Source of the DNA: an uncultured delta proteobacterium
Lineage (GTDB): Bacteria; Desulfobacterota; Binatia; UBA9968
Reading direction: 5' to 3'
Assembly: GCA_963727625.1 (NCBI GenBank)
Contig: CAVSHR010000004.1
Coordinates: 320,001-384,000, forward strand
DNA: 64,000 nt
The first letter of the stretch is position 1; each line of letters opens with the position of its first letter. Shown here piece by piece: positions 14,395 to 61,582 of the stretch. The position numbers and the translations under genes were made by a program. The notes below the pieces were generated by a model. It searched no databases, was not told the origin of the DNA, and was given only the letters and a program-made list of their open reading frames with translations.

Positions 14395-17300
14395 TCAATG
14401 AAAATCCCGGCTGCGCATGCTCGCCGGCTTCAGCTCCACTCTCGGCTCCCACAGTTCTTCCGCCACCAGATGCACTACTCCCTCTTCGGCCTGGATGGTG
14501 CCGCTGATACCGAGAAAGCTCGCGGTCTTCGCCAGCACCGCATAGCGCTGAAAAACGCTCTCCCAAATCACCGCATTCACAAAACCGGTTTCATCTTCCA
14601 GCGTCATGAACACGACGCCGCCGGCTGTCCCCGGCCGCTGCCGGCAGATCACCAGCCCGGCGTAGCGAATTTTTACGCCGTTTCTCATTTGCGCCACGGC
14701 GCGCGCGTCCGGTAATTTATGGCGAATCAAGCTCGCGCGCATCGGTTCGAGCGGATGGCGCCGCGCGCTGTGCGAAGTGCGGCGGTAATCCCAACCGACT
14801 TCCTCGAAGTCGCTCAAGGGCGCGAACCCCGGACGGCGTTCCCGCGCCGGCAGCGACAATGATTCTCCTCGCGTACGCGCCAAACGGCGCGCATCCCAGA
14901 GCGCGGTGCGCCGGTCGATGTGAAAAGAATCGAAGGCGCCGGATTCCGCAAGGGCGCTGAGCGAAGCTTCATCCAAACCCGTGCGCCGGGCGAAGTCCTG
15001 GAGCGATGTGAATGCTGCAGTACGGCGCGTGCGAATGATTCTCTCCCACTCGCCTTCCCCCAGTCCTTTGACGTAGCGTAGCCCCATGCGAACGGCGAAG
15101 CCGCCGTGGCTTTGCGTGCAAAGCTCCAGCGTGCAGTTCCAATCGCTCGTCTGGATGTCGATGCTACGCATGACGACGTGATGGCGCTTGGCGTCCTCGA
15201 CGATAGTCGCGGGCGTATAGAATCCCATCGGCTGGGCGTTGAGCAAGGCACAGGTATATTCCGCGTGATAGTGGCACTTGAGCCATGCGGTCGCGTAGGC
15301 GATAAGCGCGAAGCTCGCTGCGTGGCTCTCCGGAAAACCATACTCGCCGAAGCCGCGGATTTGCTCGAAGACCCGCTCGGCGAATTCCGCGGCGATGCCT
15401 TTCACCTGCATGCGCGTGATCAGCCGCTCGCGATGGCACTCCATTCTTCCGGTGCGGTGCCACGCCGCCATGTCGCGGCGCAGCTGATCGGCTTCGCCCG
15501 GCGTGTAGTCGGCGGCGATCATGGCGAGGCGCATCACCTGTTCTTGAAACAGCGGCACGCCGAGGGTTTTTTCCAGAACCGGTTTCAACGACGGATGCGG
15601 AAATTCCACATTTTCTTTGCCCTGTCTTCGGCGTAGATAGGGGTGCACCATGCCGCCGGTGATCGGTCCGGGACGGACGATGCTGATCTCGATGACCAGA
15701 TCGTAAAAGTTTCGCGGCCGGAGCCGCGGCAGCATCGCCATTTGCGCCCGGCTCTCGATCTGGAACACACCCACCGTGTCACCCTTGCAGATCATCTCGT
15801 AGGTTGCCGTGTCATTCGCGGGAATCGTCGCCATCGACAGATCGAAACCGCGGTGCTCATGCAGCAGCTTGAAGCAGAAATCGAGCTGGGTCAGGCCACC
15901 CAAGCCGAGCAGATCGACCTTGAACAGGCCGAGGTCTTCCACGTCTTCCTTGTCCCACTGGATCACCGTGCGCTCGGGCATGGTGGCGTTCTCGATGGGG
16001 ACGAGGTCGTACACCGGTTCGTGGCCGAGCAGAAAACCGCCGGGATGAATCGACAAGTGACGCGGGAAATCCAAAATCTCATTGGTGAGCTGGAGCAGAT
16101 GTTCGTTCACTCCACCGGACAGATCAAAACCCATCGCGGCCAGCACCTCCGGCCGCACGTTCTCGTAGGACGAAAGAAACTTGGCAACCCGATCCAGCGC
16201 CGTCTCCGACAGGCCCAGCGCCTTGCCGACGTCGCGCAGTGCCGAGCGCGCGCGGTAGCGTACCACGTTGGCGACCATGGCGGCGCGGTCGCGGCCGTAT
16301 TTCTGATAAACATGCTGGATCACTTCCTCGCGCCGGTCATGCTCGATGTCGAGATCGATATCCGGCGGTTCGGCCCGCTCCCGCGAGATAAAGCGCTCGA
16401 ACAACAGGCCGATCCGCTTTGGATCGACAGCGGTAATCCCCAGGCAATAGCACACAGCCGAATTGGCCGCCGAACCGCGCCCCTGACAGAGAATCCCGTT
16501 AGCGCGGCAGAACTCGACGATCTCCCACATGGTGAGAAAATAGCCGGGATAATCGAGCGCTTCGATGATCTCAATCTCCTTTTCAATCTGTACGACGATC
16601 TCATCGGGGATCCGGTCGGGATAGCGCCGGCGCGCGCCGGCCAAGGTTTGCCGGCGCAGCCATTCGGCCGATGTCATTCCGTTCGGCAATGTTTCGGACG
16701 GATAGCGGTAGCGGATTTCATCGAGCGAAAAATTGCAGCGCTCGGCGATTTCCAGCGTGCGCTCGACTGCGCCCGGGTCGTCGCCGAAAAGGCGCGCGAA
16801 AGCGTGCGGCGGCTTGAGCCCGTATTCGGCGTTGGGCTTGAGCTTGCGACCGCAGGAAGTGACGGGAATACCGTGGCAAATCGCGGTCAAGACATCCTGC
16901 AAACGGCGCCGCGCCGGGGTGTGGTACAGAACCTCGTTGGCAGCGGCCAAGGAAAAACCAAAGCGCTTGGCGCGCTTGCGCAGCCGCGCTTCCTGACTGA
17001 TTTCTTCTTCGCGGCGGTGGCGCGCAATCATGGCGTAAATCCGGTCGGCAAAAGCATCGCGGAGCTTGCCGAGCGCTTCATCCGGTTCAGCTTCACCGAT
17101 CAGCAAACTTTGCTCGCCGCCCCACAGTGCAACCAGTCCCGGCGCATGGGTGCAAATCTCGTCCCAAGTAACAACGCTTTCGCCTTTCCCCGAGCGCAAC
17201 CGCCCCTTCGTTAGCAATCGGCAGAGATTGGCATAGCCGCCACGGTCCTGCGCCAGCAGAACGATCGTCGAGCCATCTTCTACCGTCACTTCCGAACCGA

Positions 17301-17490
17301 CGATGAGCTTCATGCCGACTTCGCGCGCCTTCACATGAGCGCGCACCACGCCGTAGACGCCATCGCGGTCGGTCAGCGCGATCACCGGCAAGCCGAGCCG
17401 ATAAACCTCCTCCACCAGCTCGTCCGGATGGCTCGCGCCTTCGAGAAAAGAAAAATTACTCTTGCACCAGAGCGGCACGTAGAGAGACAT
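14395..17490 (-). CDS. dnaE2: Error-prone DNA polymerase DnaE2 (ImuC)
   Basis: [13 protein letters not shown] start, [26 protein letters not shown], diagnostic C-terminal SRDFH. Confidence 0.97.
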
Positions 17491-17749
17491 CGAGAATAGA
17501 CTTCAGCAAACGAACGCCGCAGTCAAAGGCGGCTTTCAGGAAACCACGGGATATTTTCTCTTTTGAGGGAGAAACACGCAGGTTAAGGATTTTTGTTTGT
17601 AGTGTCTCGGCTGCTACCGAAGAATCTCAGCAGCCGACATCAGTGTTCGCGAGATCTCCGCGCTAACCACCGATCGCAGAGATTCGCCATGGGGGCATAG
17701 GAACACCCGCCTTGAGCTTTATGCGGCCTAACGCTATCCCGCTGAGCCG
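17339..17749. repeat. Direct repeat copy A (dnaE2 5' end, leader and attC half)
   Basis: Aligns by eye with 18335-18748 with scattered substitutions. Confidence 0.9.
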
Positions 17750-17775
17750 GAATCGGGTCCGGCGGCAGGTTAGGC
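17726..17775 (-). other. Short (probably internally deleted) attC site
   Basis: GCCTAAC (17726) ... GTTAGGC (17769) immediately after the toxin stop codon. Confidence 0.65.
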
Positions 17776-17778
17776 TCT

Positions 17779-18042
17779 CTATCGGTAAACGTCCTTTCTG
17801 TGGCCAACTTTGACGATGTCGACCAGAAATTTCTCGTCGTCGATGGAATACAAGATACGATAGTTACCCTCTCGCACCCTATATCGGTCGAGGTGACCTG
17901 ATAATTTTTCACAACCAAACGGCCTTGGGTCCTCACTGAGGGATTGAATCCGTAGAACAATTCGTTGCCGGTCTTTCTTCTGTCCGACAGCGTCAATCTC
18001 TCTGCTTGCAGACGGCTTGATGACAACCCTATATCTTGCCAC
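17779..18042 (-). CDS. Type II toxin, RelE/ParE family (integron cassette)
   Basis: YRVVIKPSA.RE, PRPFGCEKLSG, YRVREGNYRILY.IDD, VGHRKDVYR. Confidence 0.9.
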   Translation of the reverse strand: MARYRVVIKPSASREIDAVGQKKDRQRIVLRIQSLSEDPRPFGCEKLSGHLDRYRVREGNYRILYSIDDEKFLVDIVKVGHRKDVYR

Positions 18043-18259
18043 GCCGTCTCAATGACCTCACCACGATTTCAAAGTCGACGCTCTTTTCGTGATGGCGTTC
18101 TTCAAACGCAGCCAGATCTTCCGCGTCCTCGGCCAACGCCAGTTTCACAGCGTCGTTGACCATATCAGAAATGGAACGATCGGTAGCTGCGGCCTTCAAT
18201 CGCAGGGCTCGATGAATCTCGGGTTCGAAATAAACGGTAGCTCGTTTGGGTAAACTCAT
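18029..18259 (-). CDS. Type II antitoxin, CopG/RHH family
   Basis: KRATVYFEPEIHRALRLKAA..SISDMVNDAV; overlaps toxin; own promoter TTGACG-17-TATTCT 6 nt before ATG with palindrome ACGTTGCAACGT. Confidence 0.85.
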   Translation of the reverse strand: MSLPKRATVYFEPEIHRALRLKAAATDRSISDMVNDAVKLALAEDAEDLAAFEERHHEKSVDFEIVVRSLRRRGKI

Positions 18260-18309
18260 ACGGGTAGAATAACGTTGCAACGTCATGACGTCAACATCCG
18301 ACCGGGAGA

Positions 18310-18486
18310 CTAACGTCGTGCGTTGAGCGGACGCGCCCGCACCACGCCGTAAACGCCGTCCCGGTCGGTCAGCGCGATCGCCGGCAAGCCGAGCCGATAA
18401 ACCTCCTCCACCAGCTCGTCCGGATGGCTCGCGCCTTCGAGAAAAGGAAAATTACTCTTGCACCAGAGCGGAACGTAGAGAGACAT
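18310..18486 (-). pseudogene. Truncated duplicate of dnaE2 5' end (58 aa, open frame)
   Basis: Translates [58 protein letters not shown]; stop lies in the GTTAG core at 18314. Confidence 0.85.
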
Positions 18487-18748
18487 CGAAAATAGACTTT
18501 AGCAAACGAACGCCGCAGTCAAAGGCGGGCTTTTCAGTAAGCCACGGAATATTTCCGCTTTCGAGGGAGAAACACGCTGGTTAAAGATTTTTGTTTGTAG
18601 TGTCTTGGCTGCTGCTCAAAAATTTCAGAAGCCAATATCAACGTTCGCGAGATCTCTGCGCTAACCCCCGATCGCAGACATTCGCCATGGGGGCATAGGA
18701 ACACCCGCCTTGGGCTTTACGCGGCGTAACGCGATGCCGCTGAGCCGC
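18335..18748. repeat. Direct repeat copy B (dnaE2 5' end, leader and attC half)
   Basis: Diverged copy of 17339-17749, offset about 997 bp. Confidence 0.9.
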
Positions 18749-18808
18749 TACAGCAAAAAAGTCCATGGATTACGAGTACTCGCCGTCGGCTCAAGCGGCG
18801 GGTTCGGC
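18724..18808 (-). other. attC site
   Basis: GCGTAAC ... GCCGCTGAGCCG / CGGCTCAAGCGGC ... GTTCGGC; R'' complements cassette start at 19301. Confidence 0.8.
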
Positions 18809-19282
18809 GGCACGAACCTCGACGTCCACATATTCACATCCGATCAGTGCATCCCGTCCGTTGAGGTCTGGATGTGAGTTGCTGTCGACGATGCACACGC
18901 GGTAGTACTGGATGAGTCGCCAACCCAATGCGTCGAAATCGAAGAAGCAGATCGGATGGATGATTTGCTTCTCCTCGGGCGGAATCCACGCAACGGGGTG
19001 GTCCCAGTATCCGGACGCCGGGATGTCGCGGTTCGCGTGCAACGGCAACTTGCCCGCATGATCCGCAAACAGTCGGTACTCCGTCAGAATCTCATTCCCG
19101 TGGTTCATCGGTATGGGCCGCACCTCCACACCGGCCCGACCAAGAACGCACTCGGCGAAGAGAGTGTTAGCGACTTTAACGAATTCGTCCGCGGTGTCCC
19201 ACGTCCCGTGGGATCGCATGTAGCTGTTCCAAAGGTGCCGCACCGCCTCCCGGAACTCGTGAATGTGTGGTGTGAGTATCAT
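18791..19282 (-). CDS. Hypothetical integron cassette protein
   Basis: 163-aa ORF filling the cassette between GTTCGGCGGC (19301) and matching R'' (18808). Confidence 0.7.
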   Translation of the reverse strand: MILTPHIHEFREAVRHLWNSYMRSHGTWDTADEFVKVANTLFAECVLGRAGVEVRPIPMNHGNEILTEYRLFADHAGKLPLHANRDIPASGYWDHPVAWIPPEEKQIIHPICFFDFDALGWRLIQYYRVCIVDSNSHPDLNGRDALIGCEYVDVEVRAAEPAA

Positions 19283-20073: not shown

Positions 20074-20673
20074 TTACCAACCGGCAAGAGCCTGTAACTG
20101 TCTGTCGTGGAGCTTACTTAAAACAGTCAAAGCCATAATCGCCCCCACTAGCGCCATCGCCATGTCGGACTGGGTGTCCCAGACATAACCTTGCGTCCCG
20201 AGAAAAGCTTCCGCGGAATCGCCGGTAGCGACGGCGACGCCCCATTCGAACAATTCGTAGAGCGCGCTGAAAGCCAGGCAGATCGAAATCACCAAGAGAT
20301 TGAGCCAGGCGCGCCCATTGACGACCGAATTTCGAATAAAGATTTCGCGCGCAATGATCGCCGGAACGAAACCTTGAGCGAAATGACCGAGCTTGTCGTA
20401 GTTGTTCCTCTGCCAGCCGAAGAAGTCACGGACAAACTTAAAAGCATCGACCTCGGCGTAAGTGTAGTGCGCGCCGAGAAACAGGATCAGGCAGTGTATA
20501 AGAATCAGCGTGTAAGCGAGTGGTGTTAAAGGGAACCGTTTGTAGGTCGCGGCGAGAATGACGAGCGCGAGCAGCGCCGGCGACGCCTCTAGAAACCAGG
20601 TAAAATAGTCATGCGGATTGACGGCCGACCAGACCAAAGCTGTGAAATAAGCTGCCAGCCAAACAATTTTCAT
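20074..20673 (-). CDS. DUF2238 (YjdF-like) inner membrane protein
   Basis: HYTYAEV, RNNYDKLGHFAQG, YELFEW, GTQGYVWDTQSDM. Confidence 0.9.
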   Translation of the reverse strand: MKIVWLAAYFTALVWSAVNPHDYFTWFLEASPALLALVILAATYKRFPLTPLAYTLILIHCLILFLGAHYTYAEVDAFKFVRDFFGWQRNNYDKLGHFAQGFVPAIIAREIFIRNSVVNGRAWLNLLVISICLAFSALYELFEWGVAVATGDSAEAFLGTQGYVWDTQSDMAMALVGAIMALTVLSKLHDRQLQALAGW

Positions 20674-20689
20674 GGGAGTTACCGCGGGG

Positions 20690-21277
20690 TTAGTTCAAAT
20701 CCAAATCTCTCAACAGCCCTTCCCGCAGATCATAGATCCAGCCGTGTACCATCACTGGACGATCCGCTCTCCATGATTGCTTGACAACCTCGGCTTCGCG
20801 CACCGCATAAACCTGCGCCGTCACGTTCAGCTCGCAAAGCCGGCGCCAGCGTACTTCTTCGCTCGGCGCGGCATCCAACTCGTCTTTGTGGGCGCGGTAA
20901 ACGGCGCGCACATACGCCAGCCAATTTTCCAGCGGCAAGCCGGACCAGTCTTGCAGCGCGGCGAGCACGCCGCCGCAGCCATAATGGCCGCAGACGATGA
21001 TGTGCTTGACCTGAAGAGTCGCGACCGCATATTGCAGCACGGAATGCACGTTGGTATCGAACGGCGGCACGATATTGGCGATGTTCCGGTGTACAAAGAG
21101 TTCCCCGGGTGCGAGGCCGACGATCTCGTTTGCCGGTACCCGGCTGTCGGCGCAGCCGATCCAAAGATATTCCGGCTTCTGTATCTTGCTCAAACGTTCG
21201 AAATACTCTGGATCACGGCGCTTAATTGCCGAGGCCCACGCTCGATTATTCTCGAAAAGTTGTGGCAGAAATTTCAT
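20690..21277 (-). CDS. can: Beta-class carbonic anhydrase
   Basis: WIGCADSRV, HRNIAN, CGHYGCGG. Confidence 0.93.
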   Translation of the reverse strand: MKFLPQLFENNRAWASAIKRRDPEYFERLSKIQKPEYLWIGCADSRVPANEIVGLAPGELFVHRNIANIVPPFDTNVHSVLQYAVATLQVKHIIVCGHYGCGGVLAALQDWSGLPLENWLAYVRAVYRAHKDELDAAPSEEVRWRRLCELNVTAQVYAVREAEVVKQSWRADRPVMVHGWIYDLREGLLRDLDLN

Positions 21278-21293
21278 ACAAAGGAGGATCCCT

Positions 21294-21917
21294 TTACGGG
21301 TTTTTGCTTTTCGATGTCGTTTTATAGCTCGCGATAATCGGCTGACGGCGAAAGCATCCTGCCACATGATCGTTGACCATGCCGGTGGCTTGCATGTGAG
21401 CGTAGCAGATCGTCGAACCGACAAACTGGAAGCCGCGTTGCTTCAAATCCTTGCTTAATATGTCGGATTCGGGGCTGGTGGCGGGATAGTCTGTAATTTT
21501 GCGCAGATCATGCACGACCGGTTGGCCGTCGACGAAGCGCCAGATGTATGCGTCGAAGCTACCGAACTCTTCTCGAACATCAAGAAACCTTGCCGCGTTG
21601 TTCACCGCTGCGGCGATCTTAGCTCGATGGCGGATGATGCCGGCGTTCTTGACCAGAGCCCCGACTTGCCGCTTGCCGAAACACGCGACTTTTTCCGGAT
21701 CGAAACCCGAGAAAGCCTGACGGTACGCGTCCCGTTTGCGCAGCACCGTGTACCAGCTGAGACCGGCCTGCGCCGCCTCCAGGGTCAAGAACTCGAATAT
21801 CAGTCGATCATCATGGACCGGCACACCCCATTCCCGGTCATGATAGTCGACATAATCGGATTTTGTCAGGTCCACCCAGGGACAGCGGTCGCTACTAATG
21901 TATCCTTTCATTCCCAT
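21294..21917 (-). CDS. tag: DNA-3-methyladenine glycosylase I
   Basis: RCPW..YHDREWG, QAGLSW, FVGSTICYAHMQATGMVNDH...C. Confidence 0.95.
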   Translation of the reverse strand: MGMKGYISSDRCPWVDLTKSDYVDYHDREWGVPVHDDRLIFEFLTLEAAQAGLSWYTVLRKRDAYRQAFSGFDPEKVACFGKRQVGALVKNAGIIRHRAKIAAAVNNAARFLDVREEFGSFDAYIWRFVDGQPVVHDLRKITDYPATSPESDILSKDLKQRGFQFVGSTICYAHMQATGMVNDHVAGCFRRQPIIASYKTTSKSKNP

Positions 21918-22005
21918 GAGAACCCCACCAAACTAAATCCGTTGTTTCCTTCTTCGGGCACGTTGTCCGAGATAAGTAGTTGTAACAAATTATGTTTTAT
22001 CGAGT

Positions 22006-22518
22006 CTATTTCGGTTTAGGGAACCGGCGGTAGAGCCGAACGATCCACCACACAAGAGCAATTACGAACCCCATCAGGACCGCGGAGAACTTCGCGCCCG
22101 GAAGCGCCGGCGGCCGCGTGTGATTGGCAAGCAAAATAATGTAGTGCATGGCCAACATCATCATCACGATCACGTAGCCGAGCCGCTTGCCGTGAGCGGA
22201 CAGAAACAGCAACGACTCTTCGCGCCGCTCCTCCGCCAACCAGTAGTCTCGATGGGGCACGTTGGTCCAGTGGGGAAACTTGCGCGGCAGCGTGCCGACG
22301 ACGAAGCTCACCAGCGCGGCCATGCCGATCATCAAACTCGCCATGAACAGCAAATAACCGTTGCGGCTCATCCAACCGTCGGCCATGCCGCTCGAACCGA
22401 AATGGGTGGCAACCCGATCGGGCAAATACTGCGAGGTATAAACGACGAACACCACGGCGAAGACCGTTAGACAAACGAGGGTCGCCAAAGTGGCGGCGGC
22501 GGGATTATTTTGCGTCAT
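22006..22518 (-). CDS. DUF1648 membrane protein
   Basis: LPDRVATHFG..G.ADGW, NVPHRDYW; several TM segments. Confidence 0.8.
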   Translation of the reverse strand: MTQNNPAAATLATLVCLTVFAVVFVVYTSQYLPDRVATHFGSSGMADGWMSRNGYLLFMASLMIGMAALVSFVVGTLPRKFPHWTNVPHRDYWLAEERREESLLFLSAHGKRLGYVIVMMMLAMHYIILLANHTRPPALPGAKFSAVLMGFVIALVWWIVRLYRRFPKPK

Positions 22519-22629
22519 CGCTCCACCGGCGCGAACGTCCCAGGCAAGGCCTTTGCCTTTTGCAGTTCAGGCGAAAAATCGCCACGAGACGGAATCATTC
22601 ACTTTTTCAGTTTGGCAAGGAGACAAGTC

Positions 22630-52519: not shown

Positions 52520-52521
52520 GG

Positions 52522-53204: not shown

Positions 53205-53233
53205 TGTTGAGTCTCCTTATCTAACTTTCCTAG

Positions 53234-53699: not shown

Positions 53700-53711
53700 G
53701 GATGCTCCCTC

Positions 53712-53756
53712 CTAAACAATTTGAACGTTTTGAACGGCTTGAACGATTTGAACGCT
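53712..53756 (-). repeat. 9-bp-period TTGAAC array between imuB and four-helix-bundle gene
   Basis: TTGAAC at 53721, 53730, 53739, 53748. Confidence 0.85.
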
Positions 53757-53758
53757 TT

Positions 53759-55303
53759 TTATTCGACCGTCCCCTGCCAGAACCACCGCCGCCTTACCCG
53801 ATCGTAATACAGCCACAACAAATCCCCGCGGCGGGTTTCGGCGAAGTAATACTCGCGCTGGATTTCCCGGTTCCACCAGCCGCCGGAAAAGACGTAGGGG
53901 CCAGTGAGCTTGTCGATGGTGCCGTGCTTGGGGCCGAGAATCAGCCAGCCGTCTTCGTGCGAGTGGTAGGGCCCGCCGGCGAGGCGAACCGGTTTGGCGG
54001 CGATGCGGCGCACCAACATATTTGGAGCGGAGAGGTTCAAGCCGTTCAAATCGTTCAACTGCTTCGCTCCGTTCAAAACGTTTTTGGGCAATTTAAGCTG
54101 GGTCAAGGGCTCCCAGGTAAAGCGCGCTTCGGGCAGGTGGCCGTCGGTGAGCTTGGCGTACACGACAGATTCTTCGCCGAATTCGGCGCGCAGGCGGGCG
54201 AGCGCGCGGTTGGCGGCGTCGAGGTCGCGCGCCGGCTGCTCGGCGAACAAACGAAGCTGCTCACGGGTCGCGGCGCAGGCTTCGGCGCTGAGCTCGATCT
54301 CGCTGACGCCGGCCGGTAGCTGCAGCGACTCCAGCCGCAACCGGACGAGATCCAATATCTGCGCGGCATCGAGCGTCGGTACCGCCGGACGCAGCGACTC
54401 ACGAAGCCAAGGGCCGTGATGGAGCAGCAAAGCGATCTCGAGCGCGAGCAGCGCCTGATGGCGTTGCGCCAGCGTCGCCAGCAGTGGATGGAGCAGTTGC
54501 TTGATCAAAAACAACAGTCGCGTGCTGTCTTCTTCCGGATCGTCGAGAAGATATTTTTGCCGGGCGGGCTCTTCGGGCGCCTGCGGTACGAGCGGCGTCC
54601 AGAGATCGCCGGCGGCCATGCGGTAAAGCCGGTGCGCCTTTTTGCCGAAGCGCTCGCGCAGCCCGCCCGGCGGCAGCGCCAGCAAGCCGCCGACGGTTTT
54701 GATGCCGAGCTTGAAAAGCATGTCGCGAAAAGCGGGCTCGATATTTAGTCGATTGAGCGGCACTTCGCGCGCGACGTTGCGTTCCTCAGCAAGATCGCGA
54801 AAGATCGTGATTCCCTCTCTCGCTTTGGCGACGGCGTAGCTGCCGAAGCGCGTGAAGCCGACGACAAAATGAGCGGTGAATCCTTGGGCGCATAGATCTT
54901 TCTGCATGGCGCAAGCCCACTGCTTCGGCGAGGCATAGAGCCTCTGCAAACCGGCGCCGTTGAGCCAGAAAACCCCGGGCTCCTCGGCCGACGGCTCAAC
55001 CTCGGGAGTAAAGCGCATGAGGCGGTGGGACAAGTCATCGACGGCTTTTTTATTTTCAGCGGCTGAAATCTCGCCGGCGCGGAGCGTCGAAGCCAGAGAA
55101 AACGCTGCGGCGTAGCGCAGGCCGGGCAGCACACCGTGGCGGCGCGCTTTTTCGTTCACCCAGAGGACCACGCCCTGCGGCTTGTCTTCGGCCACCACCG
55201 CCGCCGGATGGCCGGCCCAGTCGGGATGGCGCCGGAGCAAAAGCTGCAGCGGAAAAGCCGGCAGATCAACACAGGCCAGCCGGTCCGTTGTAAAGCTCTT
55301 CAT
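53759..55303 (-). CDS. imuB: Y-family polymerase-like mutasome protein ImuB
   Basis: ACVDLPAFPLQ, RFTPEVE, LRERFG, C-terminal GGWW...REYYFAE...WLY; overlaps imuA. Confidence 0.92.
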   Translation of the reverse strand: MKSFTTDRLACVDLPAFPLQLLLRRHPDWAGHPAAVVAEDKPQGVVLWVNEKARRHGVLPGLRYAAAFSLASTLRAGEISAAENKKAVDDLSHRLMRFTPEVEPSAEEPGVFWLNGAGLQRLYASPKQWACAMQKDLCAQGFTAHFVVGFTRFGSYAVAKAREGITIFRDLAEERNVAREVPLNRLNIEPAFRDMLFKLGIKTVGGLLALPPGGLRERFGKKAHRLYRMAAGDLWTPLVPQAPEEPARQKYLLDDPEEDSTRLLFLIKQLLHPLLATLAQRHQALLALEIALLLHHGPWLRESLRPAVPTLDAAQILDLVRLRLESLQLPAGVSEIELSAEACAATREQLRLFAEQPARDLDAANRALARLRAEFGEESVVYAKLTDGHLPEARFTWEPLTQLKLPKNVLNGAKQLNDLNGLNLSAPNMLVRRIAAKPVRLAGGPYHSHEDGWLILGPKHGTIDKLTGPYVFSGGWWNREIQREYYFAETRRGDLLWLYYDRVRRRWFWQGTVE

Positions 55304-55862
55304 AGTTCCAAGTGGGACCGCGCCGCTTGTCTTTGAGAACGCTCAGCGCGCAAGCGAAACGGTTGTCCGCCAACCGATGCTTTTCGGCGTGGGCGCGCAG
55401 CGATACCAGCGACCCCAAAGAAAACGCCGTACGGTTTTTTTCGGTGAGACAAATCAGCGCGCTGTGATGACGATGGGCCAGGCCGGTCAGGCGCGTCTGC
55501 AGCGGCATGGGAATATCGGCGGCGCCGAGATCGAGCACGACGACGCCGAATCCGCCCGAGCGCAGAAGTTTTTCGCCGGCGCGGGCGATACTCTCCGCGT
55601 GCACTAAGCGAATGACGACGAGCGTGGCTAAATCGATGCCGCCATGTGCGACGTCCGGCGGATAAAAACAACTCTCCGCCAGCGTCACCCAGCCCACCGG
55701 TTCGCCGCGCTCTTGCGCCTCCCGAATCAAGGTGAAAGCGATGGTCAACGCAGCCGAAGCCGTCGAGCCGGAGATCTCCACCATCCGCCCGGCCACTTCG
55801 TCAAACGTCCACGGCGTCGGTACAACGGCGGGACGAAACTTCAGTGTGGAAGATGAGACCAT
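55266..55862 (-). CDS. imuA: RecA/SulA-like mutasome protein ImuA
   Basis: GRMVEISG, YPPD...GIDL..L, LLRSGGFGVVVLDL, VLKDKR; directly upstream of imuB. Confidence 0.88.
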   Translation of the reverse strand: MVSSSTLKFRPAVVPTPWTFDEVAGRMVEISGSTASAALTIAFTLIREAQERGEPVGWVTLAESCFYPPDVAHGGIDLATLVVIRLVHAESIARAGEKLLRSGGFGVVVLDLGAADIPMPLQTRLTGLAHRHHSALICLTEKNRTAFSLGSLVSLRAHAEKHRLADNRFACALSVLKDKRRGPTWNYEELYNGPAGLC

Positions 55863-55922
55863 GGATAGAAACTCCGGGAAAGTTGTCTGCACTGAGCAGG
55901 ACGTAAAAAATGAGATCAGCAA

Positions 55923-55938
55923 CTGACAACAGCTTCAG
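55923..55938. promoter_or_regulatory. Candidate LexA operator upstream of imuA
   Basis: CTGA-CAACAGCT-TCAG shares CTGA-N8-TCAG with the lexA-promoter palindrome. Confidence 0.4.
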
Positions 55939-55983
55939 GACGGTATGATTGCGGAGCTGCTAAAGGACAGTAACGTCGCGTTT

Positions 55984-56039
55984 GCAGGAATGTAGTTGCA
56001 GGAATGTAGTCGCAGGAATGTAGTCGCAGGAATGTAGAA
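55984..56039 (+). repeat. Tandem repeat, 4 x 14 bp
   Basis: GCAGGAATGTAGTT/GTC/GTC/GAA. Confidence 0.95.
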
Positions 56040-56052
56040 AAGGGAGAGCTTT

Positions 56053-56137
56053 ATTTAACGCTCAAAATGAGCCGTGCGCCACGGCGACATGATCGCGATG
56101 GACGGTCAGGCGCGTCGGCTCCGTTTTGTTGTTAGCC
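56053..56137 (-). other. attC site
   Basis: ATTTAAC..GAGCCG.GCGCC ... GGCGCGTCGGCTC..GTTAGCC; R'' complements cassette start 56757. Confidence 0.8.
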
Positions 56138-56164
56138 CGCGACGCTGGTTCTTCATGCCAATGT

Positions 56165-56713
56165 TCACCGACTCTGAAGGCTCAACCGCGCCACAACGTC
56201 GCTCAGGTAGTCACCGTATCCCCAACCTATGTCCTGCGCACGGTTCCGAACCCGAACGAGACGAGCGGTTGCGCGCGTGCGTTCCTCACTGGAGAGTGCC
56301 CCCAGTGATTTCACGATGGCAGCCACCTTTGTCTCAAGCGCTGAAAAGTACGGATCATCGCCGTACCCAAGGTCGACCGCTTGCTCTGTTCCGGCCTCCA
56401 CAAACGTCAGCATCAGATCAACGCTTCCGGCGACATCACCAGTCGAACGACGATATTCTGTGATCGCCGCACTGGCGTCCCGAAGCCGAATCGGACGCTG
56501 GCTCAGGGGATCCGGAAATACCGCAACCTCGACCAAGTGCCGGTACTTCTCAATCGCCGCGGCCGAAGGAAGAAACCGCGCTTCAAGAAAACGTCGATTT
56601 GCCTCGCTTGCCTCGTGCATGTCGTGAACCAGGCCCACCAGTGCCTTTCGATCAAGGGTATCCAGCCGATTCTTCAGTGCGGCCCAACCAGAACTCTTCA
56701 ACACACGGTTCAC
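56165..56713 (-). CDS. Hypothetical cassette protein
   Basis: 182-aa ORF; DLMLTFVEAG, GWGYGD. Confidence 0.75.
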   Translation of the reverse strand: MNRVLKSSGWAALKNRLDTLDRKALVGLVHDMHEASEANRRFLEARFLPSAAAIEKYRHLVEVAVFPDPLSQRPIRLRDASAAITEYRRSTGDVAGSVDLMLTFVEAGTEQAVDLGYGDDPYFSALETKVAAIVKSLGALSSEERTRATARLVRVRNRAQDIGWGYGDYLSDVVARLSLQSR

Positions 56714-56750
56714 TCTGAGATCCTCGAATTCGAATGAATGATGTTTTGCG

Positions 56751-56807
56751 GGCTAACGCGAAGGCTGAGCGGAGTCTTTAACGCCGATCTCAAGCCGTTA
56801 GTTAGGC
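56751..56807 (-). other. attC site
   Basis: GGCTAAC..GGCTGAG ... CTCAAGCC..GTTAGGC. Confidence 0.85.
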
Positions 56808-56813
56808 GATGAG

Positions 56814-57107
56814 TCAGGCGGCCAATTTCACGGCGACTGAGACACCAGCCTTTGCGCACAGGCCCACGAGGTAGTCCAGAGACAGCTTGTCAACCTTGTT
56901 GCGCGCGATTTCGGAGATGCGGGGCTGGACAATGCCAAGGCGCTTGGCGGCTTCCACCTGGGTAATCCCCTCACGCTCCATCCACTTACGAAGCGCTTCG
57001 GCCAACTCGCAACGCAAAAGCATCACAGCGGCCTCATGCGGTGGGAAGCCGAGATCGAGGAACAGGTTTTTAGAGCCCTTCACTTGCCGTGCTTGCTTCT
57101 TCTTCAT
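56814..57107 (-). CDS. XRE/HTH_37 antitoxin
   Basis: GS.NLF.DLGF, TQ.EAAKRLGI.QPRIS......SLD.L. Confidence 0.88.
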   Translation of the reverse strand: MKKKQARQVKGSKNLFLDLGFPPHEAAVMLLRCELAEALRKWMEREGITQVEAAKRLGIVQPRISEIARNKVDKLSLDYLVGLCAKAGVSVAVKLAA

Positions 57108-57427
57108 GTCTTCTCTCCGATTAACTTGTAACGCTGCGCTGCCAGCCTAATGTCCGCCTGGGCCGTCTTTCGGGTCTTCTTCTGAAAAGCGTGCAAGACA
57201 AAAACCGCTTTCTCGAACTTGGCGACGTACACGACGCGGAACGCCCCGGCGGTATCTCGTATCCGAATTTCGTAGGCTCCGGATCCAACCGTCGGAAGCG
57301 GTTTGAAATCCGCGGGTTCACGCCCGACTTGGACCATGAACAGCTCGTAGCCGGCTTGTCGACGCACCGACTCGGGAAAGGCCGCCAAGTCGCGACGAGC
57401 TGTGCCAAGAAAGCGAACCGGCCTCAT
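57104..57427 (-). CDS. RelE/ParE (Gp49-like, HigB-type) toxin
   Basis: F.G.AR.DL.AFP, EIRI..GAFRVVYVAKF..VLHAFQKKT.KT; promoter TTGCAA-17-TATAAT with operator palindrome ATACGA-N4-TCGTAT. Confidence 0.9.
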   Translation of the reverse strand: MRPVRFLGTARRDLAAFPESVRRQAGYELFMVQVGREPADFKPLPTVGSGAYEIRIRDTAGAFRVVYVAKFEKAVFVLHAFQKKTRKTAQADIRLAAQRYKLIGEKT

Positions 57428-57474
57428 CTCGATGGATTATACGAATAGTCGTATGCACTTGCAAGTGGCCGCAC

Positions 57475-57538
57475 GTCTAACGAGATGCTTCAGGCGCGCG
57501 TTGCTTTGAACGCGTCGCTCTGAAAGCAATGGTTATGC
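57475..57538 (-). other. attC site
   Basis: GTCTAAC..TGCTTCAG ... CTGAAAGCA..GTTATGC. Confidence 0.82.
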
Positions 57539-57829
57539 TGCTGTAAGCCTGACCTTGCCAACTTTCCCGAGCTTTACGCGCTGTTTCGCCTGCCACAAGT
57601 CATAGTTGCATTGCATGGCAAGCCAACTTTCAGGAGAACGTCCCAACGCCTTGGAAAGACGCAGCGCCATCTCAGGACTGACCGCGCTAGTTCCAATAAG
57701 GATGCGATGTAAAGTAGAAGCAGCCACTCCAAGCTTGCTCGCCAGTTCGCGAGCGCTCAGATTGTTGGGCTCCAGATAAACCTCGGCAATGAACTCGCCT
57801 GGATGAGGGGGATTGTGCATAGCCATCAA
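57533..57829 (-). CDS. higA: HigA antitoxin
   Basis: MHNPPHPGEFI..YLEP, SPEMALRLSKALG.SPESWL.MQ. Confidence 0.92.
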   Translation of the reverse strand: MMAMHNPPHPGEFIAEVYLEPNNLSARELASKLGVAASTLHRILIGTSAVSPEMALRLSKALGRSPESWLAMQCNYDLWQAKQRVKLGKVGKVRLTAA

Positions 57830-58104
57830 TGATAATCCTCGTAGTCTAAAATATAAGCGTGTCCGTCTCTGAACTCAAAAGTTAAACGCCAGTTTCCGTT
57901 CACCCACACCGACCAACGGCCACGCTCCGCTCCCTTCAGCGGATGCAGGCGAAACCCAGGAACGTTCATATCTTCAACAGACTGGGCCGTGTCCAGAGCG
58001 ACCAAAAGCATCCGAAGCCGCTTTCCGTGATGGGGTTGAATACCCGCTGCAATTCCGGATTCAAAGAACTTTCTCAGCCCCTTGTGCCGGAATGATTGAA
58101 TCAT
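57826..58104 (-). CDS. higB: HigB (plasmid maintenance killer) toxin
   Basis: MIQSFRHKGL, PGFRLHPLKG, WSV.VNGNWRLTF.F, DYEDYH; upstream palindrome CTTGTTGCG-N5-CGCAACAAG (58118-58140). Confidence 0.93.
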   Translation of the reverse strand: MIQSFRHKGLRKFFESGIAAGIQPHHGKRLRMLLVALDTAQSVEDMNVPGFRLHPLKGAERGRWSVWVNGNWRLTFEFRDGHAYILDYEDYH

Positions 58105-58148
58105 GCGCCAATAATAGCTTGTTGCGCATCACGCAACAAGACCAAGTA

Positions 58149-58277
58149 GTATAACGCGAAGCTGAGCGGGAGGCGAGGAACGGCATAATATATAGACGCA
58201 GCAATTTGAACTTATAAGCTACCAGTCGTTCAAACGTTAAAAGCTTCTCGCCGATCCGTTCAAGCGAATGGTTATGC
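58149..58277 (-). other. attC site (long)
   Basis: GTATAAC..GCTGAGCGG ... CCGTTCAAGC..GTTATGC; R'' complements attI-2 core. Confidence 0.8.
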
Positions 58278-58754
58278 ATTAGCACCACCAGAGCACGCTT
58301 TCTTTACAAACGGTTGAAGTAGCAAAAGCAACAAGAGACCGCTAACTACACCGATAATAAAGGCTGGCCACATGCTTACATAAACTTCAACCGCCCCATC
58401 CGGAAGAGGTGGTATAGGGACGTCTCGGAACTGATAACTTAGAATCGCGAACTTCACGGTCTCGTATAACTCCAGTAGGAACAAGATAGAACAAACTGCC
58501 AGCGCCAATCTTCGTCCCCACGGCCTAAGTTTGAATAATCCGTAAGCAGACACGAAGGCAGCGGCGGGAAGAAAAACACTCCATCCCAAAGACAAAATAA
58601 CAAACCAGATGTAATCCAAATCCACATTAGAGCAATTTACGAGACATCGTAAGGCCAACCAAATTCCACGAGATCCGGCGAGGACCATCCACAAACCGTA
58701 AGCGCCCAAAATAACAGTGATAAACTGAACTACGTAAGATCTATTTTGGAGCAT
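58272..58754 (-). CDS. Hypothetical membrane cassette protein
   Basis: About 4 TM segments; ATG lies in the attI core GTTATGC and TAA in R''. Confidence 0.7.
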   Translation of the reverse strand: MLQNRSYVVQFITVILGAYGLWMVLAGSRGIWLALRCLVNCSNVDLDYIWFVILSLGWSVFLPAAAFVSAYGLFKLRPWGRRLALAVCSILFLLELYETVKFAILSYQFRDVPIPPLPDGAVEVYVSMWPAFIIGVVSGLLLLLLLQPFVKKACSGGANA

Positions 58755-58883
58755 AACTTGTGATTATACTGACCAGTGTAATAACTTTCTTGAAATCACT
58801 CACGACGGCCAATTTCTACAAGCGTTCCAATACCTGTCAACTGTTTTAAAAACGTCGGAAAACTCCATACACTGGTCAGTGTA
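58751..58883 (-). promoter_or_regulatory. attI-2 and putative Pc promoter
   Basis: CTGGTCAG-TATA-N7-GTTATGC, same spacing as attI-1; TTGACA at 58840-58835; second palindrome TACACTGGTCAGTGTA at 58868. Confidence 0.75.
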
Positions 58884-58897
58884 TGAATATTACACTG

Positions 58898-58964
58898 CTA
58901 GCGGTCGCCTCCGGTCAAGAAATCCGCCGGGCTCCGAACTCAGCACATGGGTGTAAATCATCGT
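58898..58964 (-). pseudogene. intI: Relic of a second intI 3' end
   Basis: Encodes TMIYTHVL / VRSPADFLTGGDR*, the IntI C-terminus with about 17 nt deleted. Confidence 0.8.
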
Positions 58965-58986
58965 GGCACCTTCGGACCGAAGATTT

Positions 58987-59020
58987 ATTCCAAATGTTCC
59001 AGGTGTTCCAATCGTTCAAC
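58987..59020 (+). repeat. 9-bp-period GTTC(C/A)A array
   Basis: GTTCCA 58996, 59005; GTTCAA 59014. Confidence 0.7.
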
Positions 59021-59050
59021 CCCGTTGATGATAACATCTAACTCGCACTA

Positions 59051-59791
59051 TTAACCCAAAATCCGCTTTGAGCTTCTCGAACCTATTTCCGGCATTTCGT
59101 CCCATGTTCTGCCGTCCAGCTTACGACCCGTAAGCTTCTTTCTCGTCCCGCCCCATTGTTTAAAGAAGAATGGAACCCCTTGAGCGATGCATCGGTCTCT
59201 AATCTTTCTGACCCACTGCGGATCAATAATACGCGCTCCAGGACCAGACTCACCACCGACAATTACCCACTGGATTCCTTGGAGTGGTAATCGAGGAATA
59301 GGTCCCAACAAAGGCTCAACTGAGAGAAACCGGACTGCTGCAGGCACTTTTCGCAAATGCTCAATGCGATAAGCATATTCCGCATTCTCAACGCTCACGC
59401 CCATCCAGATATTGTCATGCCAGGGAAGTTTTCTTGCGAGCTCGAAAACTCTTTCCGCGCGCTTCGTTAAAATCTGGAAGGTATGCCAAGGAGTTTTTCC
59501 CATCACGTCAAAAACCGATCGGATGAATTCAAACGGCACATCAGGATGAAACAAATCGCTCATGGAATTGACGAAAATCTTCCGTGGCTGATGCCAGCGC
59601 AGAGGCTGACCGAGAACATCCGGCTGTAAGGTTACAGCGAAATTATTCCGATACCTCACCTGCCCCATCGCATACAGCCTGCGCGCCATCCGATGCGCGT
59701 AACAGTTCTTGCACCCTGGGCTAATTTTCGTGCATCCGGTCACCGGGTTCCAGGTTGCGTCAGTCCATTCAATCGCCGAATCTTGGGCCAT
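59051..59791 (-). CDS. DUF5131 / phage Gp37-Gp68 family three-Cys-motif (radical-SAM-like) protein
   Basis: [54 protein letters not shown]. Confidence 0.92.
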
Positions 59792-59801
59792 ATATACCTC
59801 A

Positions 59802-60656
59802 CTAAAATTCGAAGCCTGTTTGCGGGTCTGAATATTTCTTTGTTTCGCTCCAAAACTTTGCACCTAGCTCACTTCTGCTGTAAAGAGCGAGCCTGTATAG
59901 GGGTAAATTTTTTTCGCCGCGAATCAATTTGGATTCGTTTATCCCAGGGTCGATGTATCTGAGTTTCTGCATTGAACGTCTAAATTCCTCAACTACGAAG
60001 CGCTCAAACGACTTACCAGACGGTTTCTCTTTATCCCAGCGAACACGCCAATCGGGGTTCCCAACAAAATTTTCCAACGTCTTATTAACATCCCGAACAT
60101 AGTGCTGCTCGTTGCGGTTTGCGTCCATTGCCGAGGGAATGAGCACCAAGAAATCCACAAATCTTTGTGACAAGCTCTCTATTGTTGAAAAATTTAAGTT
60201 CTGCATCTGAAATGGATCAAGGAAGCAAAAACCTAGCACTTTATGGTTTTTCCCTGGGCGTGGCATCTCAGCAATAATTCGCTCTACTAAAAGGTTGGCG
60301 TCCCCGGAAATAACCGATATTTTTCGATCAGGAAACTCTCGCTGGCACCGTTTTACGAGTGTGTCGGCATTAATTCTATCGCCTTCGCAAAAAATGTATT
60401 TATCAAATGCCTCGGGCATCCCAAGGATCAAAAGAGGAGACGCGTTCACAATTCGCTTTGTTCCCCGAATTCGAGACCGTCCTGAACCCGCAAACAAATC
60501 TAAGTAAATTATTTCATCCCATTTGGTGCGTATGGATTTTATAAAAAGCGACGCATAGAAAAGTACGTGGCGATATTTATCTTCACCCCAAGCGCCAATT
60601 TCTGGGGTTGGTAGCCCGTCCTCTTTCAGTGCTTTAAGAGGCTGTATATTCGCCAT
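59802..60656 (-). CDS. tcmP: Three-Cys-motif partner protein TcmP (methyltransferase-like)
   Basis: [25 protein letters not shown]; adjacent to DUF5131 gene. Confidence 0.85.
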
Positions 60657-60845
60657 ACAGGGATTTCCTACCAAACTGTACATACATTACTGCGTCGTTT
60701 CGAAGCAATTAAAATGCACCTACAACGATAGCCGCTGCTTTGAGGTCGGTACCACAACGAATCCTGAAAAACTAGCCAAACATTAGATGGGCTTCCGCCC
60801 ACACTGCATCGAACCGTTCCAGGAGAGAAGTTTCGAAGTTTGACA

Positions 60846-60935
60846 GTTTCAATCGTTCCAACGGTTCGAATGGTTCAATCCGGTCGAATCTGTTTAAACG
60901 ACTGGAACGTTTTGAACGACTTGAACGATTGGAAC
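60846..60935. repeat. Head-to-head 9-bp-period GTTC/GAAC arrays directly after lexA
   Basis: GTTC-type units 60846-60887 then T(T/G)GAAC units at 60903, 60912, 60921, 60930. Confidence 0.8.
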
Positions 60936-60937
60936 TC

Positions 60938-61546
60938 CTAGAATTTTCTCAATAACCCGACGACCTTCCCAGCGATGCGAAACTCTCCCTGTGAAACGGT
61001 AATCGGGGCGTATTTTTCATTTTCCGCTTTAAGCGTGACGACACCGTCTTTTTTAAAAAATCGCTTTAACGTCGCCTCGCCGTCGATCACGGCGCAGACG
61101 ATCTCGCCGTTTTCCGCCCCTGCCTGTTGCTTCACGATCACCCGGTCGCCGTCCATGATGCCGGCGCCGATCATGCTGTCGCCTTTGACTTGGAGCGCGA
61201 AAGTTTTCCCGCTGCTCATGTCGTCGGGGATGGTGATGACGCCTTCAATATTTTCTTCGCTGAGAAAGGGTTTACCGGCGGGCACCCGGCCCAAAACCGG
61301 CGCTTCCCGAGTAGCGGTTAGAGCCGCTTTCCCTAAGGCGTTGACGACTTCGATGGCGCGCTTGCCGACCCGGCGGATGTAGCCCTTCTTTTCCAAGGCT
61401 TTCAGATGGTCGGAGACACCGTTGGTCGAGGCGATCTTGAAGCGCCGGCCGATCTCGTGGATCGACGGCGCGAAGCCCTTTTCTCGGATAGTCTTCAGCA
61501 GAAAATCGTAGATCGCCTTTTGCCGGTCGGTGAGCGATGGAAGCAT
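60938..61546 (-). CDS. lexA: SOS transcriptional repressor LexA
   Basis: LTDRQ..PS..EI..F...STNGV..HL.ALEKKGYI; VPAG cleavage site; GDSM (Ser) and TLKR (Lys). Confidence 0.96.
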   Translation of the reverse strand: MLPSLTDRQKAIYDFLLKTIREKGFAPSIHEIGRRFKIASTNGVSDHLKALEKKGYIRRVGKRAIEVVNALGKAALTATREAPVLGRVPAGKPFLSEENIEGVITIPDDMSSGKTFALQVKGDSMIGAGIMDGDRVIVKQQAGAENGEIVCAVIDGEATLKRFFKKDGVVTLKAENEKYAPITVSQGEFRIAGKVVGLLRKF

Positions 61547-61553
61547 GAAAGCT

Positions 61554-61582
61554 TGTATACTGAAAATATTTTCAGTAGTCAA
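61554..61582 (-). promoter_or_regulatory. lexA promoter with perfect 20-bp palindromic operator
   Basis: TTGACT-17-TATACA, 7 nt before ATG; spacer holds TACTGAAAATATTTTCAGTA (61558-61577). Confidence 0.8.

Follow-up and report, generated by a model that had tools for sequence, protein, structure and literature searches.

That the SOS response controls integron recombination is a central idea about how bacteria capture and reshuffle adaptive genes, and SOS-controlled integrons were reportedly described by Guerin et al. in 2009. In the chromosomal integrons of Vibrio cholerae and in class 1 integrons, a LexA box overlaps the integrase gene's own promoter, and this gene (intI) is divergent from the cassettes; to our knowledge, SOS control of recombination has been demonstrated only for integrons with such a box at intI. 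A second LexA-controlled system, the lexA-imuA-imuB-dnaE2 adaptive mutagenesis cassette, is said to have been described by Erill et al. in 2006. For a further known system, the inverted-integrase integrons, we know of no described link to SOS or to mutagenesis genes, and our searches found none either. Here we analyse a window of 64,000 nucleotides (nt) from an uncultured, soil-type delta proteobacterium (positions 320,001 to 384,000 of contig CAVSHR010000004.1, assembly GCA_963727625.1), in which an integron and the mutasome genes are physically coupled in one co-oriented locus. Our reading, to which we give a probability of roughly 60%, is that the locus is a sedentary inverted-integrase chromosomal integron resident in a LexA-controlled lexA-imuA-imuB-(higA-like)-dnaE2 operon, so that the two would share a single damage switch.

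According to the accessible portion of Cambray 2011 (PMC3108266), chromosomal integrons of soil and freshwater have as a rule lost LexA regulation, and 46% of IntI are inactivated; that portion mentions neither imuA nor dnaE2, and the available part of Nemergut 2008 (PMC2426708) mentions neither lexA, nor a polymerase, nor SOS. A permafrost mobile-element paper defines inverted integrons, with no mention of SOS in the part of the text at hand (PMC13323075). The nearest statement found, in the accessible text of Sanchez-Alberola 2012 (PMC3323433), is that in Vibrio the presence of the imu cassette correlates with which chromosome holds the superintegron. An earlier note on this DNA, made from the sequence alone, knew of no description of the layout, and we too found no paper on an integron-in-mutasome layout in the full-text literature, the matches listed being reviews and regulon papers; subscription journals and supplements were outside the scope of that search, so a prior description is possible.

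The genome (G000 below; relatives carry other G numbers) consists of 15 contigs and 6.6 Mb, and the window is part of a 1.65-Mb contig. As the earlier note had stated, lexA, imuA, imuB and dnaE2 keep their canonical order on the minus strand while spread over about 47 kb from first to last, which profile matches and coordinates bear out. Cassettes at two predicted attI sites have moved imuA 5.0 kb from lexA and, together with non-integron DNA, dnaE2 36 kb from imuB; the operon is thus neither compact nor contiguous. Its genes and promoter are the following.

61554-61582, minus strand: lexA promoter, with -35 TTGACT, a LexA box (61559-61576) in the spacer and -10 TATACA
60938-61546, minus strand: lexA (TIGR00498 210.4 bits, cut-off 110.95; Pfam LexA_DNA_bind, PF01726, and Peptidase_S24, PF00717)
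55266-55922, minus strand: predicted imuA, overlapping imuB (RecA-fold PF00154 30.6 bits, cut-off 27)
53759-55303, minus strand: imuB (PF00817 IMS 38.7 bits, cut-off 23.2)
53262-53699, minus strand: four-helix-bundle gene (23S rRNA IVP family), flanked by inverted GTTCAA 9-mer arrays
52908-53204, minus strand: orphan higA-like helix-turn-helix (HTH) gene, an operon member in the genus (imuB, higA-like gene and dnaE2 are contiguous in G008)
14395-17490, minus strand: dnaE2, error-prone DNA polymerase (NF004225 1360.9 bits, cut-off 939)

In the profile search lexA shows both its winged-helix DNA-binding domain and its S24 autopeptidase domain, and we re-set its start to an ATG conserved in an eight-genome upstream alignment, 36 nt downstream of the start of the listed open reading frame (ORF). 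The imuA product is weak on the curated ImuA model (NF033429, 25 bits against a cut-off of 150); its position and its overlap with imuB fit imuA. That of imuB falls far under the cut-off of every Pol IV model. By tblastn against the whole genome lexA, imuA, imuB and dnaE2 are each present in a single copy; the search also meets the housekeeping dnaE1 and a duplicate, 51 codons long, of the start of dnaE2.

The predicted LexA box is an 18-nt perfect palindrome that fills the 17-nt promoter spacer, and it is kept in all eight genus lexA upstream regions that were aligned, with TTGACT and TATACA invariant around it. In the whole genome, this site (61559-61576) is the sole match within two mismatches of the genus LexA-box consensus; the same scan gave no box upstream of recA or intI, nor in the dnaE2 leader, in line with the earlier note, which had seen none at intI. 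Three sites at three mismatches look intragenic or unconvincing. Because there is a single box in the genome and none at recA, LexA seems to control directly only its own unit; a lexA-imu unit as the sole LexA-regulated unit is reported for several organisms in the accessible text of PMC3323433. Among the relatives, a LexA box was found in 13 of 26 loci scanned, at most one per locus and always at the head of a unit: before lexA in G001, G003, G008, G012, G014, G017 and G018, and before imuA in G011 and G015, whose loci hold no lexA. In G013, for which no imuB was found, dnaE2 has a LexA-box promoter of its own directly upstream (TTGATT, palindrome, TATATG, at about 11822 of C94), an apparent compensation, to judge from its position, for separation from the operon head. 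A contig of G005 (C347) reads LexA box, degenerate lexA fragment, intI, HTH gene, one attC, dnaE2. Two other candidate LexA sites were rejected: a 14-nt repeat in the imuA leader, the box clearly being the palindrome of the lexA promoter, and the GTTCAA 9-mers, which belong to a genome-wide repeat of about 102 clusters.

Both intergenic gaps hold integron material, largely as the earlier note had it. Its intact intI with about 10 cassettes between imuB and dnaE2 agrees with a TIGR02249 score of 467 bits and 10 attC sites, and the intI relic, attI and four cassettes that it saw between lexA and imuA are borne out, the relic with its attI-like region by alignment to the intact intI and attI and the cassettes by four attC sites; a tcmP-DUF5131 pair in that gap had escaped it. 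Of the three nested platforms that it proposed, one intact and one relic platform stand. The third, a supposed solo attI beside dnaE2, finds no support, as the place holds a pair of attC sites and a second copy of the 5' end of dnaE2; we found no attI homology there in searches of the window, the genome and the relatives. Nor is the whole 47 kb filled with integron, since about 23 kb of the imuB-dnaE2 gap are a ~12-kb island and a ~10-kb block of core genes that the note had passed over. The intact platform and its surroundings are as follows.

52029-52907, minus strand: insertion between the higA-like gene and intI (repeat and structural scans)
52806-52778, minus strand: promoter-like site of hicBA (promoter scan, not richer than shuffled sequence)
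52522-52719, minus strand: hicB, within the insertion upstream of intI
52303-52509, minus strand: hicA, within the same insertion
52378-52294, minus strand: attC-like site within the hicBA insertion
52029-52208, minus strand: duplicated 3' part of the higA-like gene, abutting intI
50924-52012 (ORF 50924-52081), minus strand: intI, intact integron integrase (TIGR02249 467.3 bits, cut-off 265)
50783-50923, minus strand: predicted attI, past the 3' end of intI, in a region with homology to the relic platform
43008-50782, minus strand: array B, with 10 attC sites (repeat family, fold scans, covariance model)
50034-49964, 49242-49161, 48104-48042, 47448-47356 and 46998-46903, minus strand: array B attC sites 1-5
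46402-46303, 45614-45534, 44963-44877, 44195-44115 and 43066-43008, minus strand: array B attC sites 6-10

The integrase matches positions 1-314 of 315 in TIGR02249, contains the integron-specific extra domain and shows the catalytic motifs in its translation. Translation probably begins at the ATG at 52012, which follows AAGGAGG and lies 13 nt past the stop of the higA-like duplicate. In attI the predicted crossover core is GTTAGCC (50783-50789), and a Pc-like TTGACA-17-GAGAAT at 50873-50845 matches at 10 of 12 positions in a promoter scan that was not enriched over shuffles. As intI, attI and the cassettes all lie on the same strand, the layout is that of an inverted-integrase integron.

How could this integron answer to DNA damage without a LexA box of its own? 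In the mechanism that we propose, damage would lead to RecA-stimulated cleavage of LexA and hence to derepression of the lexA promoter, whose transcripts would pass imuA-imuB and the higA-like gene and extend into intI and the foremost cassettes. Excision and insertion of cassettes would then be switched on together with mutagenesis by ImuA, ImuB and DnaE2, the position in the operon replacing the LexA box that is found at the intI promoter of Vibrio and class 1 integrons. Such operon read-through is a plausible means of SOS control for intI, because the genome's only LexA box sits in the lexA promoter. IntI activity would in turn have remodelled the locus, leaving the pseudo-cassette of the dnaE2 5' end, the cassette-like hicBA beside intI and cassettes shared between species.

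The relatives tell how far this arrangement extends. In the relatives set, 29 of 41 genomes (G000 among them) have an imuB match, as do 19 of the 24 genus members; the genus count given here covers 16 genomes, namely G000 and 15 of those 19, and leaves out the imuB contigs of G002, G020, G023 and G024. Nine of these 16 carry intI or a remnant of it in the locus (G000, G003, G005, G006, G012, G014 with two copies, G016, G017 and G018); the part of G005 in this count, like its C347 string and its imuB-intI fragment (C138), rests on an unpublished genome. Every in-locus intI copy lies on the operon strand. The copies follow lexA in G003 (relics), G014 and G018, and the higA-like gene in G000, G006, G012 (there behind a tcmP-DUF5131 pair), G014 and G016, with a relic at this place in G017; in G005 (C138) intI follows the IVP four-helix-bundle gene that comes after imuB, with no higA-like match. 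In G006 and G014, intI begins 4-18 nt past the higA-like gene. With this query no intI was found in the fetched context of G008, G011, G015, G019 and G021, and in G001 and G009 the contig breaks off too early for scoring. The co-orientation of cassettes and operon noted earlier extends to the relatives: just as all attC sites of array B lie on the minus strand, all 55 matches to our attC covariance model (R1, E <= 0.01) lie on the operon strand when both strands of 573 kb of relatives' loci are searched, and they fall into the gaps where they would be expected. Single contigs of G003, G006, G014 and G019 each show imuA-imuB, array, core block and dnaE2 in this order, headed by lexA in G003 and G014; the stretches fetched from G006 and G019 gave no lexA match, and both outer flanks are kept where they were fetched. 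Thus the physical coupling of cassette platform and mutasome that the earlier note had suggested is conserved in the genus.

Outside the genus the picture changes. The genomes G027 and G029, both from a sister family, carry imuA-imuB-dnaE2-intI, with the intI ATG about 22 nt past the dnaE2 stop behind an AAGGAGG ribosome-binding site; intI is broken in both, and 12 co-oriented attC matches lie downstream in G029. A third family has imuB adjoining dnaE2 and no intI nearby. Across a sample of 401 genomes of the phylum, intI is present in 143, dnaE2 in 25 and both in seven, on the same contig only in G000; in the six other genomes with both genes we found no further intI-dnaE2 adjacency. The lexA-imuB-dnaE2 genes are compact, with intI elsewhere, in G061, G064, G205 and G331, the last from a sister genus in the same family; G078 has imuB adjoining dnaE2, again with intI elsewhere. 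On the gene orders compared, the embedding is a derived, lineage-restricted trait and no general rule, because these five genomes keep imuB and dnaE2 together with intI elsewhere. The earlier note had allowed for a one-off rearrangement, with relatives showing a compact operon and the integron elsewhere. Such relatives exist at a distance, and within the genus G008 is compact (lexA, four-helix-bundle gene, imuA, imuB, higA-like gene, dnaE2, with no intI in the locus), but with nine of 16 genus genomes embedded the event is not a one-off.

Several observations weigh against a shared damage switch. About 9.5 kb separate the lexA promoter from intI, with four cassettes, two toxin-antitoxin modules and attC hairpins between them, and a terminator-like hairpin (56085-56071) sits inside the last attC before imuA. 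The hicBA module brings its promoter-like site directly upstream of intI, and intI could therefore be constitutive or HicB-controlled; the promoter and terminator scans as a whole were no richer than shuffled sequence. A search of sequencing runs gave no RNA run containing the locus, and six DNA runs with 5-6% of the sampled words. The operon is functionally split, because dnaE2 is without a LexA box and lies 33 kb from intI. To this must be added that the five phylum members and G008 are compact without an intI in the locus, and that about half of the in-locus intI copies are degraded (relics in G000, G003 and G017, two stops in G006, a TGA in one G014 copy, broken genes in G027 and G029).

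These same observations give some substance to the rival that survives best, which we nevertheless consider unlikely: that the integron landed once by the imu operon in the genus ancestor, stayed, duplicated and decayed, being served by its own or nearby promoters, so that linkage has no regulatory meaning. The restriction of the embedding to the genus and two sister-family genomes, the many in-locus intI copies that are pseudogenes or relics, the hicBA promoter-like site and a dnaE2 outside LexA-box control in G000 all fit such a history. It accounts less well for the fact that intI occupies three slots (after lexA, after the higA-like gene and after dnaE2), with each of about 13 copies co-oriented and at operon-like spacing, nor would it lead one to expect a LexA box kept at the head of each rearranged unit, or intI-lexA and intI-dnaE2 fusions in unrelated phyla. 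The phylogeny of IntI also speaks against it, for it does not follow the slot; copies therefore appear to have moved or been replaced while their orientation was kept. A quick maximum-likelihood tree of 88 rows mixes the genus copies among sequences that bear labels of other phyla, and it does not join the two G014 copies as sisters. At least eight changes of the linked state are needed on this tree (13 rows linked, 32 unlinked and 43 of 88 unscorable, a row being scored unlinked only with at least 3 kb of flank on both sides). Such repeated linkage of intI to SOS genes across lineages is suggestive only, because related rows are not independent and the labels of metagenome-assembled genomes (MAGs) can be wrong.

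Parallels of this kind were sought among the 80 public loci most similar in IntI. Nine of them match any SOS-locus protein of the window, and six of these are co-oriented neighbours. In L021, a public MAG labelled Ca. Acidiferrales, imuB is followed by intI; with ImuB at 85% identity, it probably belongs to the same genus as the window genome. The arrangement imuB-dnaE2-intI, which occurs in a Myxococcota-labelled MAG, is that of L046, and L048 has imuA-imuB-dnaE2 followed after 2.9 kb by intI. In a Rhodocyclaceae MAG (L095) intI lies 112 nt upstream of dnaE2. Two MAGs, of Desulfobacteraceae (L055:9140-10773) and Methylomirabilis (L070:2164-3848), have a canonical intI that overlaps the true lexA start by 10 and 4 nt respectively, in an intI-lexA operon with cassette-like ORFs divergent upstream. 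Of the other three, L053 has an ambiguous DnaE-like fragment, L063 matches by its four-helix-bundle gene only, and L036 has a DnaE-like match of 27% that is distant and anti-oriented. From these comparisons we tentatively extend our reading, with the odds somewhat against the extension: intI may have been wired to the damage response repeatedly, by its position downstream of lexA, imuAB or dnaE2 units, to form a single "evolvability" transcription unit in which the integrase remodels the operon and compensating LexA boxes are selected, as perhaps in G013.

The cassettes themselves bear on what the integrase may have done here. In array B, five of the 10 attC sites are very strong (covariance-model E <= 3e-17 or strong structure). 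The other five have a model E of 0.02-4 or rest on the structural scan alone, and were curated by position; we accepted them because each lies directly 3' of an ORF and has RYYYAAC...GTTRRRY ends. Several attC calls with a covariance-model E above 0.01 thus rest on structural scan plus position, and scores alone are unreliable in this range, as matches of similar E (0.01-10) also fall inside genes and on the plus strand. The R1 model was built from four similar attC sites, is sequence-heavy and missed the long-loop attC at 46402-46303; MAFFT alignments of the heterogeneous sites were poor. A strict attC pattern scan found none, and relaxed fold-based scans gave many gene-internal false positives, which were again curated by position.

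The cargo of array B includes a methyltransferase, a barstar, a DUF6966 protein, a RibD_C protein and an IS200-like Y1 transposase. The RibD_C cassette protein (44190-44858) is 100% identical to a cassette protein of G003 and 97% to one of G014. Recent exchange of cassettes between species is indicated by these sequence identities, because they, like the 91-93% of the antitoxin-like o85 beside dnaE2, exceed the 75-88% of core proteins. The RibD_C counterparts of G003 and G014 lie in other, lexA-proximal arrays. As to the remaining cargo, the IS200-like Y1 transposase gene (43092-43805) is packaged as a cassette, with the attC at 43066-43008 and a non-coding leader of about 300 nt. At 47006-48030, the barstar-family gene (47006-47338) has its own attC and follows a cassette for an unknown 194-aa protein, which may be the cognate RNase toxin of barstar, split into a separate cassette.

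Between lexA and imuA lie a decayed platform and a shorter array.

59802-60683, minus strand: tcmP (three-Cys-motif partner), of a tcmP-DUF5131 pair between lexA and the relic, with flanking GTTCAA 9-mer arrays
59051-59863, minus strand: DUF5131 gene of the same pair
58751-58978, minus strand: relic integron platform, aligning with the intact intI/attI at 50759-51024
56053-58754, minus strand: array A, with four cassettes (Pfam, covariance model, structural scans)
58277-58149, 57538-57475, 56807-56751 and 56137-56053, minus strand: attC sites of array A (structural scans and covariance model)
55923-56052, minus strand: imuA leader, beginning exactly at the GTTAAAT core of the last array A attC

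The relic retains about 60 nt of the intI 3' end, its last ~25 codons with a 17-nt deletion, and an attI-like region with CTGGTCAG repeats, a Pc-like TTGACA promoter and a crossover GTTATGC at 58751-58757. Its match to the 3' end of intI is 97-100% in G003 and G014; to the attI region, it is 71% over 152 nt in G012. Array A carries, in order, an unknown ORF (o160), higB-higA, a gp49-HTH toxin-antitoxin pair and an unknown ORF (o182); its covariance-model matches have E values of 1.9e-8, 0.056 and 0.56. The tcmP-DUF5131 pair precedes intI or a relic in G000, G012 (C72) and G017 (C34), for platforms after lexA and after the higA-like gene alike; in G009 and G019 only DUF5131 was matched, behind the higA-like gene. 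In the imuA leader, the 14-nt tandem repeat at 55984-56037 has four copies by eye, which a repeat finder gives as three overlapping 26-nt copies; its motif is single-copy in the relatives and expanded fourfold in G000. The leader may hold a secondary promoter, and the 14-nt motif could be a promoter or operator element.

The junction at the imuA leader also raises the reverse relation, in which imuA-imuB or the whole mutagenesis cassette would be cargo of the integron or of a larger mobile element. We hold this very improbable. The leader begins exactly at the attC core GTTAAAT, a junction kept, with the leader, in four genomes (G000, G003, G014 and G019); a piece of dnaE2 is packaged as a pseudo-cassette; and the imuA-imuB-dnaE2 cassette reportedly spreads horizontally (Erill 2006). 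Yet neither the covariance model nor the structural scan detects an attC 3' of imuB or dnaE2. The flanking core genes (o206-o530 upstream of lexA and o403-o331 downstream of dnaE2) are conserved across the genus, the identities of LexA, ImuB and DnaE2 (75-88%) track it, and compact, integron-free versions exist in G008 and G331.

Beyond array B, the imuB-dnaE2 gap is made up as follows.

31198-42945, mostly minus strand (an RpiR regulator on the plus strand): strain-specific island, GC down to 0.49-0.50 in parts
20074-30689: conserved core-gene block, syntenic directly upstream of dnaE2 in seven relatives
17491-19282, minus strand: two-attC cluster beside dnaE2 (repeats, structural scans)
18808-18724 (with o163) and 17775-17726, minus strand: attC sites beside dnaE2
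18723 to about 18332, minus strand: pseudo-cassette with the dnaE2 leader and codons 1 to ~52, ending near GTTAGTC

Covariance model and structural scan detected no attC in the island, and it is no integron array; apart from weak NMT1 paralogues and a single weak GFA match (30%, in G006), it has no homologues in the relatives' fetched loci. The core block holds genes for DUF2238, carbonic anhydrase, Tag, DUF1648, EamA, FKBP, TIR-PDZ, MR/MLE, SpoIIM, HIT, TIR-FGE and DAHP synthase, and is syntenic in G003, G006, G012, G014, G019, G021 and G023, lying upstream of lexA instead in G008. Two of its products have a TIR domain, one as TIR-PDZ (24186-25187) and one joined to an FGE-sulfatase domain (28342-29523), and their genes are possible defence or signalling genes. 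Beside dnaE2, the two-attC cluster also contains o85 with o128, both of which recur in arrays of G014 and G019, and then the 235-nt dnaE2 leader. A duplication of about 500 nt spans the attC, the 235-nt leader and the first ~52 codons of dnaE2; the two copies are of high identity from the GTT core onward and only at family level before it. This pattern would fit a pseudo-cassette produced by integrase action at a secondary site in dnaE2. Fragments of the dnaE2 5' end also lie upstream of dnaE2 in G003 and G005.

Repeats such as these, that is, attC sites, a 410-nt duplication and genome-wide 9-mers, could in principle have mis-joined a chimeric contig and so produced the 47-kb spread, but such an artefact, which the earlier note had also entertained, has next to no chance, given a window inside a 1.65-Mb contig and the same gene order, with outer flanks kept where fetched, on the four relatives' single contigs described above.

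The 9-nt tandem arrays, GTTCAAnnn, occur at 60840-60953, 53704-53762, 53225-53263, 58996-59025 and 61600-61720, often as inverted pairs able to form long hairpins, and flank the IVP-family gene and the tcmP-DUF5131 pair. With about 102 clusters genome-wide against none in shuffled sequence, they suggest a REP/MITE-like repeat family of the lineage. Two further C-terminal fragments of intI elsewhere in the genome (C4:790491-790583, 71% identity; C2:478221-478337, 51%) are possible additional decayed platforms.

We can now set the locus beside the known systems. In IntegronFinder terminology, a cluster of attC sites lacking an integrase is a CALIN, and the two attC sites beside dnaE2 (18808-17726) are likewise without an adjacent intI or attI; unlike a CALIN, they share their locus with an intI 33 kb away and bracket a duplicated piece of dnaE2. 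With the Vibrio cholerae chromosomal and class 1 integrons (PMC3108266, consulted in its accessible portion), the likeness would be an integrase under the LexA switch and cassette shuffling under stress, here by a read-through that is only proposed. The difference is that in the window no LexA box overlaps the intI promoter, the mark of an SOS-regulated integron in the Guerin/Cambray sense, and intI is co-oriented with its cassettes inside a LexA-regulated operon. With the lexA-imuA-imuB-dnaE2 cassette, as given in the available text of PMC3323433, the locus shares the same genes in the same order and a LexA operator at the head. That cassette is normally compact, as in G008, G331, G061, G064 and G205, whereas here it extends over 47 kb with two integron platforms, an island and a core block, and has extra higA-like and four-helix-bundle genes. 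With inverted-integrase integrons of the Treponema denticola type (PMC13323075, in the part at hand), it has in common that intI and the attC sites share one strand, with a predicted attI past the 3' end of intI.

An intI downstream in the genome's only LexA-regulated unit offers a concrete, testable alternative route to stress control, and the locus is a natural system that physically unites mutagenesis with gene capture. The arrangement has its cost, as growth of the cassette arrays separates the mutasome genes, and the species differ in how they repair this, a LexA box re-appearing before imuA or before dnaE2. If our reading is true, positional wiring of this kind would explain stress control of soil and freshwater integrons that lack LexA boxes. 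Set against the known systems, then, we envision a known principle, SOS-linked integron activity, achieved in a new way by embedding in the mutasome operon, conserved in one genus and with sporadic echoes elsewhere.

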